DNA of 64,000 bases from Flexilinea sp. (GTDB taxonomy: Bacteria; Bacillota; Clostridia; Oscillospirales; Oscillospiraceae). Below are positions 3,647 through 48,712 of the stretch, one piece after another. Every line of letters starts with the position of its first letter. Position 1 is the first letter of the stretch. The notes below the pieces were generated by a model. The model was not told where the DNA came from. It ran no database searches and saw only the letters and a list, made by a program, of their open reading frames with translations. The position numbers and the translations under genes were made by a program. Where the stretch lies: assembly GCA_963615825.1 (NCBI GenBank), contig CAVEIY010000001.1:3200-67199 (forward strand), read 5' to 3'.

Positions 3647-4456
3647 ATGCCAAGAAAAACGGTTGCGATCATCGGATATGGGGCGCTGGGCAATATTCTG
3701 GCGTCGGCCCTTCGTCAAACCCTGCCGGAGAACTATCAGGTCAGTGGAATTTGGACCCGTCATATACAGCGGGATATGGAGCGGATTCGGCAGGACGGGT
3801 TCCGGCCCTATGGGAACTTTGAAGCGCTTTTGGCGGATAAGCCGGATTATGCGGTGGAAATTGCCAGCGTGGAGGCGGTTCGCATGTACGGGGAAACCTT
3901 GCTGCGCGCTGGGATTTCTCTCGTTGTGACCTCTGTGGGGGCTTTGGCAGAGGATGAATTGCGGGAGACGCTGGCCCAATCTGCCCAGGCCAACGGAACT
4001 CGGGTCTATGTGACATCCGGCGCAGTGGGCGGCTTTGATGTATTGCAGACGGTGGCCCTAATGGGAAATGCGCGGGGATGCATTGAAAACGTTAAGGCAC
4101 CGGAGAGCCTCCAAGGCGCGCCCTATTTGGAGGGAAAATCCCTGCCTTTGGATCGGAAGCAGACGGTATTCCGGGGAACGGCCCGGGAGGCAATTGCCGG
4201 TTTTCCAAAGAATGTCAACGTAGCGGTGGCATCTGCCCTTGCCAGCGTTGGAGTGGACGCCATGCAGGTGGTGATTGACAGCCGCCCGGGGAAGCAGGAT
4301 AATTTGCACCGTATTACGGTGGAGAACGATGGCGTCCGGGCTGTAATCGAGGTGGCCTCCCGTCCGGATCCCGGAAACCCTCGCTCCAGCGTTATGACGG
4401 CTTGGAGCGTGGTGGCATTGCTGCGGAATCTTGCCAGCCCCATTGAGTTCTTTTGA
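3647..4456 (+). CDS. Aspartate dehydrogenase domain-containing protein (NadX-like)
   Basis: N-terminal Rossmann motif VAIIGYGALGN and central SGAVGGFDVL motif. AGGGAGG lies 7 nt before ATG 3647; the track start GTG 3641 is the alternative. Confidence 0.6.
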   Translation: MPRKTVAIIGYGALGNILASALRQTLPENYQVSGIWTRHIQRDMERIRQDGFRPYGNFEALLADKPDYAVEIASVEAVRMYGETLLRAGISLVVTSVGALAEDELRETLAQSAQANGTRVYVTSGAVGGFDVLQTVALMGNARGCIENVKAPESLQGAPYLEGKSLPLDRKQTVFRGTAREAIAGFPKNVNVAVASALASVGVDAMQVVIDSRPGKQDNLHRITVENDGVRAVIEVASRPDPGNPRSSVMTAWSVVALLRNLASPIEFF

Positions 4457-9545: not shown

Positions 9546-10469
9546 ATGGAAGGATCAATTATCGTCTCACAAATGGTTCAGATGTTTTTAATGATGTTTC
9601 TGGGCTATTTTTTGAGAAAGATCGGCTTGATGGATCAGGGGTTTACAGCAAAGCTGACCACGTTCCTGCTCAATGTGGCGATGCCCTGCCTGATTCTTCA
9701 TTCGGTCATTGGACAAGCGGGCGGAAGAAATCTGGAAGAGGCTGGGGTAGTATTTGCGGTGGCCACCGGAATGTATTTGCTGCTTCCGCTGCTGTCACTG
9801 CTGGTGGTGAAGCTGCTGCGGCTGCCAAAACAGCAGCAAGGGGTCTATGCTTTTATGATGACCTTTTCCAATGTGGGCTTTATGGGCTTTCCACTGGTTA
9901 ACGCGGTATATGGCGGTGAGGCAGTGTTCTACACGGCAATCATCAACATTCTGTTTACGATCTCCAGCTATACCATTGGTCTGCTGCTGCTCCACTGCGG
10001 TCAGGAAACCAAGGCGAGAATCGACCCGAAGCTGCTGCTGACACCGGGGGTGGTGCTGTCTGCGCTGGCCATTGTGCTGTATTTGGCGGACCTGTCCTTT
10101 CCTGCCGAGGTGGTTCAGGTGACGGAAACCGTGGGGAACATGACCACGCCGTCGGCAATGCTTTGTATGGGCAGCACCCTGGCTTCTATGGAGCTGAAGG
10201 AGGTCATGAGCGATTGGCGGGTATATCTGTTTAGCGCAATCAAGCAGATTGTCCTGCCGCTGCTGCTATTGCCGCTGCTTTGGACCGTCCTCTCCAGCGA
10301 TTATCTGCGGGGGATTGTCTATCTTCTGCTGCTTACGCCCGTGGCAAACTCGGCGGTGCTGTTTGCCACCGAGTATGGGTTTGACGAAAAGCTGGCTGCC
10401 AAGGGCGTGTTCATCTCCACCATCCTGTCTGTGGGAACCATTCCGCGGCTGGCTCCACTGATAGGGTAG
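9546..10469 (+). CDS. AEC (auxin efflux carrier) family transporter
   Basis: 307 aa, about 10 TM. Its N-terminus resembles AEC/malate-permease-type carriers. Confidence 0.75.
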   Translation: MEGSIIVSQMVQMFLMMFLGYFLRKIGLMDQGFTAKLTTFLLNVAMPCLILHSVIGQAGGRNLEEAGVVFAVATGMYLLLPLLSLLVVKLLRLPKQQQGVYAFMMTFSNVGFMGFPLVNAVYGGEAVFYTAIINILFTISSYTIGLLLLHCGQETKARIDPKLLLTPGVVLSALAIVLYLADLSFPAEVVQVTETVGNMTTPSAMLCMGSTLASMELKEVMSDWRVYLFSAIKQIVLPLLLLPLLWTVLSSDYLRGIVYLLLLTPVANSAVLFATEYGFDEKLAAKGVFISTILSVGTIPRLAPLIG

Positions 10470-44015: not shown

Positions 44016-44023
44016 CAACCCCA

Positions 44024-46179: not shown

Positions 46180-46955
46180 CAGCGTTTTCCTCCACTTTCC
46201 TTCTTGGAATAGGCATAGCTGTCACCGATCTTTGCAGCGGCCTCCATGTTGGGAATCGAACCAATCACCGGAATTCCGCAGCGCTCTTCCAGTGTGCTGA
46301 CATCTTTAATCCGGTCGTCCAACAGTTCCTTCACGATTACAATACCGGCGGAAAGAAAGATACCGAGAATCACACCCAATAAAGCATTTTTGGTGTAGCT
46401 GGGGGAATAGATGTCGACGGGAATGACCGGCTGGTCTACGATCTGCATAGAGCTTCCTTCAACAATTTTTGCAATATAATCTCCAGCAACCTCCGATATT
46501 GCCCGTGCAACTGCGGCAGCCATTTGGGCATCCGGCATTGTCACGGATACCTGGATGATTTCAGTGCTATCTACGGAAGCTGTGGATACCATTTGTTTTA
46601 GCTGTAAATAATCATAAGGAGCGCCGGCCTGCGCGGCTGCACTCTCCAATACGGAACGACTGGTAATTACGGCAGAATAGGTCTTTACCAGAGCCTGGGA
46701 GGCGGCTAAGTCTGAATTGGTCAGCGTTCCGGAACCGCTATCCTGATTGCTGCGGTTGTTGACATACGCGGAAAAGGTAGACTGATACTGCGGTGTAATG
46801 AACACATGCGTTCCAACAAATGCCAATACACCGCAGAGTATACCAACCAGCAGGATGATACCTGCACGCTTCCTGAGTGCTTTGGCAAGCACCCGAAGAT
46901 CTATCGTCACTTCATCCTCATTGTTCCCAATTCCAACATGATTGGCAGCTGCCAT
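46179..46955 (-). CDS. Wzz/CpsC-type chain-length determinant (Wzd), kinase modulator
   Basis: Two TM helices flank a periplasm-like loop. 1-nt overlap with the kinase gene. First gene after the invertible promoter. Confidence 0.8.
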   Translation of the reverse strand: MAAANHVGIGNNEDEVTIDLRVLAKALRKRAGIILLVGILCGVLAFVGTHVFITPQYQSTFSAYVNNRSNQDSGSGTLTNSDLAASQALVKTYSAVITSRSVLESAAAQAGAPYDYLQLKQMVSTASVDSTEIIQVSVTMPDAQMAAAVARAISEVAGDYIAKIVEGSSMQIVDQPVIPVDIYSPSYTKNALLGVILGIFLSAGIVIVKELLDDRIKDVSTLEERCGIPVIGSIPNMEAAAKIGDSYAYSKKESGGKR

Positions 46956-47131
46956 AAACCTTCTATCCCCTCAGCAATGTATATTTGATCGTGTTACTTC
47001 CTCGTGTGCCCTAAAATGTATCGACATGTGAAAGCCCGCGTTGCGATGCGTTCCAGGAGCTCTGATACTACTGGAATATTCTTCGGATTGTTACGCAGCT
47101 GTTGTTTTGAGATCTATGGATTCACCTGATA

Positions 47132-47156
47132 ATTACATAATCAGCATTATGTGATA
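47132..47156. repeat. Inverted repeat, left arm (IR-L) of putative inverton
   Basis: ATTACATAATCAGCATTATGTGATA. The exact reverse complement lies at 47403-47427. Confidence 0.9.
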
Positions 47157-47188
47157 CGAATGCACAACAATGATATTTTTCTTTTTGA

Positions 47189-47217
47189 ATTTTATCATCA
47201 TCATTTCCGAAAGTCAA
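47189..47217 (-). promoter_or_regulatory. Near-consensus sigma-70 promoter inside the invertible segment, currently aimed at the capsule operon
   Basis: Minus strand has TTGACT (47217-47212), 17-nt spacer, TAAAAT (47194-47189). Confidence 0.6.
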
Positions 47218-47402
47218 CCTAAACCGCCTAGATTTGTCAATTCATAAGGGATGGTTGATCCATATCAATTATACTCAAAGCAACAGAGCTTGGATTCCAC
47301 AGACTTTGCGGGACAAGCTCTCGTCTTTTATCGCCTTTGCATACATTTAAATACATTTTAGTATATATATGTATTTTCGATGCTGATAATAGCTGCTAAT
47401 AC

Positions 47403-47427
47403 TATCACATAATGCTGATTATGTAAT
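47403..47427. repeat. Inverted repeat, right arm (IR-R)
   Basis: TATCACATAATGCTGATTATGTAAT is the reverse complement of IR-L, 25/25. Confidence 0.9.
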
Positions 47428-47444
47428 GGTCTGGATTATTGCGA

Positions 47445-48284
47445 TTATAGCAGTAGACCAAGGCCATCAATTTTTTTCTGGTGCTCCATACCGGTAGACA
47501 TAATATAGATCCGCGTTGTGTTGATGCTGCTGTGTCCCAGCAAATCTGCCAGCTTTGCAATGTCCTTTTCCAGTTCATAAAATGTCTTTGCAAAGAGCTT
47601 TCGCAGATTATGCGGAAAAACCTTTTCCCGTAATACATGGGCTTGGGTACAGAGTTGCTTCATTTCAGCCCATATATTACAGCGGTTGACTGCTTTTCCG
47701 CTTTTGGTTCGGAATATTATCCCGCTTTTAATATGATTCTGCTGTGCATAGGCCAGCAGAATTTTTTTCAATTTATGAGGAATTAAAATTGGCCGTGTTT
47801 TTCCCTTGCAAGAGACGATGACTTCCCCTTTACGCACCATCTCCACGGTAAAAAAGCGCAGTTCTGATACTCGGATTCCGGTGCTGCATATTGTCTCCAA
47901 GATAAGCTTGAGGCGTGGCTGATGCTCTGCTGCACGGAGAAGCCGCATATATTCCTTTTTGGTAAGCTCCTTATTTTCTGTTAAATAGGTCTGGCGCTGC
48001 AGTTTTATGCTTTTTACCTTACAATCTCCGCATTCCATGTAGTCGAGTAAGCAATTGACAGCGGCAAGCATGGAGTTTACAGAACGAACGGCATACCCTT
48101 TTTCTATTAGCGCCTGTTTATATTGAACAACCAATTCCTTTGTTAGGGTCTGGCTTCCAATGAACTTTAAAAAGCAGCCAGTATCATGACGATATTTTTG
48201 GATTGTAGCGGAGCTTCGTTCTTCATGGACCAAATAAGTGAAAAAACCATTCATTACTTCATCCGTTATTTTATCCTGTCTCAT
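47445..48284 (-). CDS. Tyrosine-type site-specific recombinase (phage integrase/Xer family), candidate invertase
   Basis: N-terminal SAM-like core-binding domain. Catalytic set GIRVSELR (R), CKGKTR (K), PHNLRKLF (HxxR), LGHSSINTTRIY (H, Y). Start moved to ATG 48284 behind GGGAGGA. Confidence 0.85.
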   Translation of the reverse strand: MRQDKITDEVMNGFFTYLVHEERSSATIQKYRHDTGCFLKFIGSQTLTKELVVQYKQALIEKGYAVRSVNSMLAAVNCLLDYMECGDCKVKSIKLQRQTYLTENKELTKKEYMRLLRAAEHQPRLKLILETICSTGIRVSELRFFTVEMVRKGEVIVSCKGKTRPILIPHKLKKILLAYAQQNHIKSGIIFRTKSGKAVNRCNIWAEMKQLCTQAHVLREKVFPHNLRKLFAKTFYELEKDIAKLADLLGHSSINTTRIYIMSTGMEHQKKIDGLGLLL

Positions 48285-48470
48285 TGTGTTTCCTCCCAAA
48301 TTCAATAGATACCTATAATATAGCATTTCTCATTCAAAAGAATAAAGAAGCGTGAGACAGAATTTGCTCCGGGCCTGCAAGTGAATGGGTTGCGCTGCCG
48401 TGAAAATTGTGATCCTTTCGTCCGCAGAGAAAAGCCGCTGATTTCCAAAGAAATCGGCGGCTTTTTCAAA

Positions 48471-48503
48471 ATAAAAATGGGCAGCCACAGTGTGTGGCTG
48501 CCC
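48471..48503 (-). terminator. Terminator of the Dlt-like operon
   Basis: Minus strand reads GGGCAGCCACA-cac-TGTGGCTGCCC followed by ATTTTTATTTTG. A second hairpin follows at 48431-48464. Confidence 0.75.
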
Positions 48504-48577
48504 ATGATGGCGATGCAGGGATAGATAGTTAAAGCACAGCGGCGATAGCACAAGACTGTCCGTTCACAAGTAGCGGC

Positions 48578-48712
48578 TTAAAATCCCTCATAGATAAATT
48601 CGCCGTTTCCGGTGAAAAACAGGAAAATGGCCAGCAGCATCAGGGCGTAAAGCAGAACCTGAACAGGGAGGCTTCCTAAAAAACGAGAAAACTTTGATGT
48701 TCGCTTTTTCAT
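48578..48712 (-). CDS. DltX-like small membrane protein (44 aa), not in the ORF track
   Basis: Hand translation gives MKKRTSKFSRFLGSLPVQVLLYALMLLAIFLFFTGNGEFIYEGF. One TM plus a C-terminal FIYxxF-type motif, as in DltX. ATGA overlap with the upstream gene's stop. Confidence 0.65.
   Translation of the reverse strand: MKKRTSKFSRFLGSLPVQVLLYALMLLAIFLFFTGNGEFIYEGF

Follow-up and report, generated by a model that had tools for sequence, protein, structure and literature searches.

A recombinase-driven invertible promoter, or inverton, very probably phase-varies capsule production in Flexilinea sp., a member of the Oscillospiraceae. The stretch of DNA that we analyzed, referred to here as the window, comprises 64,000 nucleotides of contig CAVEIY010000001.1 (assembly GCA_963615825.1, positions 3,200 to 67,199 of the forward strand). 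Within it, a 246-bp segment carrying a promoter (47157–47402) is bracketed by perfect inverted repeats and lies between a gene for a tyrosine recombinase and a capsule locus. A related strain carries the same segment exactly reversed between identical repeats, and the layout of recombinase gene, paired sites and enclosed segment is conserved over a family of related loci. An earlier interpretation made from the letters of the window, here called the sequence-only reading, had proposed an inverton at this place. Every structural element that it named is present, and both orientations were found. Variation of the capsule phenotype itself would follow from this arrangement.

Results

Two 25-bp arms enclose the invertible segment. 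The capsule-proximal inverted repeat (IR-L, 47132–47156) reads ATTACATAATCAGCATTATGTGATA, and its exact reverse complement forms the recombinase-proximal repeat (IR-R, 47403–47427), leaving 246 nt between the arms. A perfect 25-bp repeat around 246 bp had been claimed for this region, and both arms were located at these positions. The pairing extends outward to 32 nt at 91% match. When the 25-mer was searched with up to 3 mismatches, the 64-kb window held 2 copies, namely IR-L and IR-R, and 100 shuffles held 0. A chance origin of such paired perfect repeats is not expected. Each arm contains an 18-bp core, which is ACATAAT-CAGC-ATTATGT in IR-L (47135–47152) and ACATAAT-GCTG-ATTATGT in IR-R (47407–47424), and a third core site was not found in the window. 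An exact scan for the 25-mer gave 0 matches in species-representative genomes and 0 in JGI metagenome contigs.

The segment holds no protein-coding gene and carries a predicted promoter on the minus strand (47217–47189). This promoter, TTGACT-17-TAAAAT with an extended TG –10 element, matches the sigma-70-like consensus with a score of 10/12, the best of such sites within 46700–48700, and its –10 element lies 32 nt from IR-L. Both the motif and its location had been given by the sequence-only reading, as had the orientation of the sequenced allele, in which the promoter is directed at wzd, the first capsule gene (ON). No comparable competing promoter was found on the minus strand of the leader, 176 nt long, that separates IR-L from the start codon of wzd, and no other minus-strand promoter-like site was found between the recombinase stop codon and wzd. 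The window's promoter motif also stands at the same relative position in the related loci L003, L004, L006, L104 and L109.

Upstream of the promoter, the segment contains a central, terminator-like hairpin (47283–47324). Its predicted fold is stronger on the minus strand (–25.1 kcal/mol, z –3.3) than on the plus strand (–16.5 kcal/mol), where UCUUUUAU comes after the hairpin. A comparably strong hairpin occupies the same relative position in most interiors of the family described below. The central hairpin may act as an insulator against read-through from the recombinase gene. We also considered it as a terminator acting in the OFF state only. This role was rejected, as a crude terminator scan gave near-equal numbers of hairpin and T-run signals on the two strands (61 vs 58 of 68 loci) and the window's hairpin is stronger on the promoter strand.

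Transcription from the promoter is predicted to start at about 47182 on the minus strand and to give a 5' untranslated region of about 225 nt that includes IR-L and the leader (46956–47131, minus strand). An Rfam search of 46700–48700 at E ≤ 1 returned chance-level matches only, so the leader contains no known riboswitch or leader RNA. Part of the leader (47011–47029) shows a 19-nt, 84% complementary match to the interior of the segment (47343–47361). As a candidate for an orientation-dependent terminator in the style of cwpV, this match was dismissed: inversion turns it into a direct repeat, which forms no hairpin, and its AT-rich composition points to chance.

The presumed invertase is encoded on the minus strand at 47445–48284. 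Its gene starts with ATG at 48284, with GGAGG 7 nt ahead, and its product is a 279-aa tyrosine recombinase. The gene's 3' end had been described as adjoining IR-R at a distance of 18 bp; the adjacency holds, and the measured gap between stop codon and repeat is 17 nt. Pfam recognized a Phage_integrase domain (6e-21) and an N-terminal SAM-like domain, Phage_int_SAM_1. The catalytic set R..K..HxxR..H..Y, named in full by the sequence-only reading, is complete: R138, K160/K162, H225-x-x-R228, H251 and Y260 are all present and invariant in an alignment of 32 sequences (the window's protein and 31 homologues). The best relatives in the PDB are the XerC-like structure 4a8e and XerA 5hxy, with XerD also among the nearest. 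All NCBIfam Xer equivalog models scored below their cut-offs (129 bits against 220 for XerA, 106 against 335 for XerC, 102 against 330 for XerD and 49 against 267 for XerS). By these scores and domains, the protein has an Xer-like two-domain fold and is not an equivalog of XerA, XerC, XerD or XerS. The window encodes no paralogue of it. In almost all related loci with enough downstream DNA, the recombinase gene is kept beside a paired core site.

Direct evidence for the opposite orientation came from a metagenome contig in ENA, L003. Close relatives such as this one were all retrieved by exact-protein look-ups; a protein-based metagenome scan returned distant relatives only (46–55% identical). 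L003 encodes a recombinase 97% identical and a Wzd protein 99.2% identical to those of the window, in the same gene order, and both of its 25-mers are identical to the window's. Its 246-bp interior is 94% identical to that of the window only when reverse-complemented, with an alignment score of 219 reversed against 20 in the same orientation. The boundaries of this change in orientation lie exactly at the repeats. Both orientations thus exist in nature, as had been predicted. A further relative, L109 (recombinase 94% identical), carries identical repeats in the ON orientation. Among the close relatives, the window, L004, L104/L105, L109 and L110 are ON, and L003 and L006/L007/L008 are OFF. L108 was set aside as evidence for the OFF state; beyond the 25-mer its OFF-like junction covers only 5 nt, of which 4 lie outside the 26-bp repeat of L109, and this is too short. 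Another contig, L106 (ERZ27279219 k141_276602), encodes exactly the recombinase protein of L104 and L105. Downstream it diverges 4 nt after the recombinase stop codon, before the repeat, and it has no core site there. The cause may be a further rearrangement, loss of the switch by deletion or chimeric assembly of the contig.

Contig breaks provided a second line of evidence. Two Logan contigs from SRR13434689, L001 and L002, encode the window's exact recombinase and Wzd proteins, respectively. L001 stops at 47403, the innermost base of IR-R, and L002 starts at 47156, the innermost base of IR-L. Logan contigs are 31-mer assemblies from which k-mers seen once are discarded (PMC12424806). A 25-bp repeat is shorter than k = 31 and cannot branch the assembly graph alone, so these breaks imply that the reads continue in two ways, the second of which is most obviously the flipped interior. 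Similar breaks occur in L005, at the last base of the perfect repeat core, and in L107, at the repeat edge. In all, k = 31 breaks at the repeats were found in three independent samples (SRR13434689, SRR17531981 and SRR19415671). The prediction of two orientations is borne out at three levels, namely the exact flipped allele in L003, the contig breaks at the inner repeat edges and family promoters that point either way.

Downstream of IR-L, a capsule locus of about 18.0 kb runs on the minus strand from 46955 to 28962. Its first four genes form a module of about 2.9 kb (46955–44024). By Pfam, they encode Wzd (Wzz, 46955–46179), a Wze-type (CpsD-type) ATPase (AAA_31/ParA, 46179–45487), a Wzh/CpsB phosphatase (CpsB_CapC, 45469–44762) and a priming sugar transferase (Bac_transf, 44734–44024). 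The remainder (43820–28962) was assigned by Pfam and hydropathy to rmlA/B/D/C, a GT2 and a GT4 glycosyltransferase, a pyruvyl transferase, an FrhB-like protein, two WbsX proteins, a 400-aa multi-transmembrane protein, Caps_synth, a 520-aa multi-transmembrane protein and a second GT2. The sequence-only reading had called this a Wzx/Wzy locus. Pfam supports its gene order of wzd-wze-wzh-priming transferase-rfbABDC-glycosyltransferases; the names Wzy and Wzx stay unconfirmed. The candidate Wzy (400 aa, 8 transmembrane-like segments) and the candidate Wzx (520 aa, 9 such segments) had no Pfam match, and hydropathy identifies them as multi-transmembrane proteins only. Their assignment as Wzy and Wzx is plausible.

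An intrinsic terminator lies on the minus strand directly after the priming transferase gene (44017–43982), with a 14-bp stem that has 7 GC pairs, followed by TTTTGTTG. An equivalent hairpin and T-run follow the same gene in L004 (about 10300–10350) and L006 (about 10363–10400). The gap ahead of rmlA is 203 nt, and a further terminator closes the capsule locus (28605–28578, minus strand). Because a strong terminator follows the fourth gene, the direct target of the switch is probably the four-gene module and not the whole 18 kb, and wzd-wze-wzh-priming transferase is most likely the direct transcriptional target. The sequence-only reading had let the switch gate the entire locus of about 18 kb. 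Its figure for the length stands; transcription of the whole from the one promoter fits poorly with the terminator at 44017–43982. The recombinase gene, the switch and the same four genes are kept together in L004 and L006/L007, where the upstream genes and the later glycosyltransferases differ. The terminator, whose position is conserved in three capsule loci, also divides the locus into a conserved four-gene head and a variable, serotype-like tail.

On its other side, the recombinase gene is preceded by a dlt-like operon (53020–48709, minus strand) that encodes an AMP-binding ligase, a GNAT acetyltransferase, an MBOAT protein and a 302-aa membrane-anchored protein. The gene calls of L001, a contig of the same strain, add an 82-aa PP-binding carrier protein to this operon, and the same neighbors occur in L001 and L003. 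Two hairpins on the minus strand separate this operon from the recombinase gene (48505–48430); one lies at 48477–48505 and is followed by a T-run, and the other lies at 48430–48465.

The cassette belongs to a large family in Clostridia. A profile search with the recombinase against species-representative genomes found relatives encoded at no fewer than 591 loci in Clostridia. Among the matches listed, the family spans Lachnospiraceae, Oscillospiraceae, Acutalibacteraceae, Erysipelotrichaceae and others. The recombinase family and the named matches of neighboring genes belong to Clostridia, which makes the clostridial commensal of the sequence-only reading plausible. Of the relatives of a 680-aa OYE-type oxidoreductase, one at 49% is labeled 'Oscillospiraceae bacterium'; the cluster names for RfbA (Hominenteromicrobium, Jingyaoa) carry no diagnostic value. 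We fetched 80 loci. Nearly all of those with enough downstream DNA carry an inverted pair 5–60 nt past the stop codon of the recombinase gene, with arms of 18–34 nt that are 210–320 nt apart. Alignment of 66 sites gave a near-invariant core, ACATAAT-N4-ATTATGT, with flanks that lengthen each palindromic half-site to about 10 bp. The N4 center took 34 different values in the 66 sites and was palindromic in none, as expected of a crossover region. From its sequence, the core is thus interpretable as a complete tyrosine recombinase site, in which an asymmetric crossover region is set between two half-sites.

Within the otherwise diverged family interiors, it is the promoter that is conserved best. 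Of 68 interiors, 41 have a strong outward promoter 20–55 nt from one repeat, where shuffles gave 1.2 ± 1.0, and only 4 have such a site elsewhere in the interior. It always points outward over a repeat, toward either the cargo or the recombinase gene; relative to the downstream genes, 14 promoters are ON and 27 are OFF. Some genomes hold several copies of the cassette, as in the metagenome-assembled genome RUG11941 (L053 and L055) and the bin Lapin-004__bin96 (L066 and L078). Variant site arrangements also occur. L022 has 65-nt arms (3853–3917 and 4164–4228) with two tandem core sites each, and L039 and L042 have extra core sites in the interior. Such members may be nested or multi-state switches.

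Cargo differs widely among distant members (52–66% identity), for which the first open reading frame past the distal repeat was taken as cargo by crude calls in L009–L088. It includes TetR regulators, SipW-type S26 signal peptidases, long collagen-like GxD/GKDG repeat proteins, BspA-LRR and VWA proteins, FctA pilin, Band-7 proteins, DUF4379/HA-domain helicases and a GGDEF protein. Judged by these calls, the cassette is not capsule-specific. Many metagenome-assembled contigs end 40–250 nt past the recombinase gene, at the first site. In L013, L035, L038, L043, L048, L070 and L076, the contig ends at or just past the first core site, 40–130 nt past the stop codon. Switches of this family are systematic assembly breakpoints and probably hide cargo genes from binning.

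Discussion

We propose the following mechanism for the window's switch. The 279-aa recombinase would bind each 25-bp arm as a complete site, consisting of the half-sites ACATAAT and ATTATGT (extending to about 10 bp) around the asymmetric CAGC. Synapsis of the two sites and strand exchange in the crossover region centered on CAGC would follow, and since the sites are inverted relative to each other, the exchange would flip the intervening 246 bp. In the ON state, transcription from the promoter at 47217–47189 would cross IR-L and the leader of 176 nt and enter wzd-wze-wzh-priming transferase. With the segment OFF, the promoter would converge on the recombinase gene from its 3' end, leaving the capsule module with no recognizable promoter. 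Lacking the priming transferase and the export regulators Wzd, Wze and Wzh, the cell would not start a capsule. Initiation of any repeat unit requires the priming transferase, so the remaining genes of the 18-kb locus would be silenced functionally. These later genes may thus depend on the switch in function and perhaps not in transcription. It is speculation by analogy with fimE/fimS that the promoter facing the recombinase gene in the OFF state could bias the switch.

Several points weigh against this proposal. The promoter is a consensus match, and we take it to be the capsule promoter. The terminator at 44017–43982 makes its reach to rmlA and beyond doubtful, and those genes may have a promoter of their own. 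Hairpin and T-run signals are about equally common on both strands and lend no support to a read-through block specific to the OFF state. L003 represents another strain, with an interior about 6% different, and not the same cells. Inversion within one clonal population is what we infer from contig breaks and this related strain, whose evidence is strong but indirect. The recombinase is assigned to its sites by adjacency only, which makes it a putative invertase.

Three other explanations were weighed against an invertible capsule promoter. The segment may flip without gating the capsule; its promoter would then be minor or serve, for example, antisense control of the recombinase, and the capsule would be driven elsewhere, by read-through or by internal promoters such as one before rmlA. 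Separate transcription units are suggested by the terminator after the fourth gene and the 203-nt gap before rmlA, and the OFF promoter does converge on the recombinase gene. We nonetheless regard this explanation as unlikely. Between wzd and the stop codon of the recombinase gene, the minus strand has no other promoter-like site, two hairpins shield the recombinase gene from the upstream operon, and a strong hairpin stands between the recombinase gene and the promoter. The promoter is also the best-conserved part of the family interiors and always faces outward, toward cargo or recombinase.

Still less probable is that the repeats are static, either as an operator pair or as the fossil of a switch, with the differences in orientation being ancient fixed events or assembly artifacts. 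The only full-length flipped allele with identical 25-mers, that of L003, does come from a metagenome assembly. Against this, the repeats are still perfect even though the interior has diverged by 6% between strains, the recombinase is intact with invariant catalytic residues, and each of three independent samples yields k = 31 contigs that stop exactly at the inner edges of the repeats. Close relatives show a mixture of ON and OFF states. In addition, a survey (PMC11892184) describes read-level flipping in an inverton group of Clostridia that has this geometry and likewise lies beside a tyrosine recombinase. The least probable explanation, with hardly any weight in our assessment, is an integrase or Xer-type resolvase whose repeats are att sites or dif-like sites for a mobile element or for dimer resolution. 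The best matches of the protein are indeed Xer models and the XerC, XerA and XerD structures, and the single-recombinase system XerS is described as having its site beside its gene (PMC2731167). All Xer equivalog scores, however, fall far under the cut-offs, and the sites form inverted pairs 210–320 bp apart that enclose a promoter. The occurrence of several copies per genome and of the same flanks around an interior in both orientations also speaks against this explanation. We accordingly retain the recombinase-driven capsule inverton as the preferred interpretation.

By architecture, the closest analogue of this inverton is fimE-fimS-fimA of E. coli, and functionally it would be a switch of the fimS type. 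The sequence-only reading had likened it to RecV/cwpV and the Bacteroides invertons; the type of switch was rightly named, and the fim arrangement is closer. Like the window's segment, fimS is an invertible element of about 300 bp that carries the promoter of a surface operon and is flipped by tyrosine recombinases. The gene order, which we checked, also agrees: fimE adjoins fimS on the upstream side and reads toward it, and the OFF promoter is directed at the recombinase gene. The repeats of fimS are 9 bp long and it is served by two recombinases with directional bias, whereas the window has one recombinase, 25-bp lox/dif-like sites and a capsule module of the Gram-positive type as cargo. FimB and FimE (198–200 aa) lack a SAM-like N-terminal domain and share 24–26% identity with the 279-aa protein in the catalytic domain only. 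On these comparisons, the window's recombinase falls outside the FimB/FimE family.

RecV of C. difficile is one enzyme that acts at several distant sites, and regulation by its switches is often post-initiation, via terminator formation or Rho. The RecV switches (cwpV, flgB and cmrRST) are described as short regulatory segments upstream of surface-related operons that are inverted by a tyrosine recombinase (PMC5386303, PMC5903667). The window shares with them the Firmicutes background, a tyrosine recombinase and a repeat-flanked segment ahead of a surface-related operon. It differs in architecture, having a dedicated adjacent recombinase and a promoter on the segment itself. In Bacteroides, the main capsular polysaccharide promoters are reported to be flipped by the global serine recombinase Mpi, with UpxY/UpxZ regulators encoded next after them (PMC11685472). 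For B. fragilis, a local tyrosine recombinase is cited as switching an exopolysaccharide locus (Chatzidaki-Livanis 2008 and Weinacht 2004, cited in PMC11602134). The window's locus resembles these in being a capsule locus of a gut commensal under promoter inversion. Its enzyme is a tyrosine recombinase, unlike Mpi, its first gene is of the Wzz type with no UpxY, and both repeat motif and phylum differ. It is not an Mpi/UpxY system. Single-recombinase Xer/dif and Cre/loxP systems also have inverted half-sites around a short asymmetric center that sets directionality, and the window's protein is a two-domain Xer-like protein by sequence. Unlike dif, the window's sites are used as an inverted pair that flips a promoter, not for dimer resolution.

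A full-text literature search found no paper on a capsule inverton in gut Clostridia, and its sole related match was a 2025 survey (PMC11892184). As described there, inverton group 139 of hCom2 comprises 33 invertons, 32 of them in Clostridia, from 17 strains, and has a previously unpublished repeat motif. These invertons are reported as intergenic, with repeats of about 14–26 nt that are about 205–230 nt apart, and as nearly always lying beside a tyrosine recombinase of invertase group 35; read-level flipping is given for Clostridium sp. D5 and Intestinimonas butyriciproducens (PMC11892184). Taxon, geometry and recombinase adjacency, as stated in that account, agree with the window's family. 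The family is probably group 139. The survey's passages on group 139 mention neither capsule cargo nor the anatomy of the site nor a breadth of at least 591 loci (PMC11892184).

Conclusions

Our analysis describes a switch of a well-known type, which is well supported and would not surprise a specialist. The picture at the level of the family is the more interesting lead. It is quite possible, and we propose it tentatively, that the window's cassette is one copy of a very large and portable Clostridia family, thousands of proteins strong, in which one Xer-like enzyme, together with a lox-like core of 18 bp, makes up a self-contained phase-variation module. Such modules would have been recruited repeatedly ahead of diverse cargo, with the variable N4 preventing cross-reaction between several switches of one genome.

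Phase-variable capsules are a hallmark of gut Bacteroides, where they shape phage resistance, immune recognition and colonization. The window's locus offers a concrete and testable example of a probable capsule switch in an uncultured Clostridia lineage. Its analysis also defines the site ACATAAT-N4-ATTATGT and reveals the same cassette ahead of many other surface loci. Short-read assemblies are broken by such switches exactly at the repeats, so reference genomes freeze one arbitrary state, which is ON in the window. This frozen state matters when capsule expression is scored from genomes alone. Should the proposal of a portable family hold, read-based surveys would greatly understate how pervasive phase variation is in gut Firmicutes, and small recombinases that are mutually orthogonal could readily be drawn from the family.

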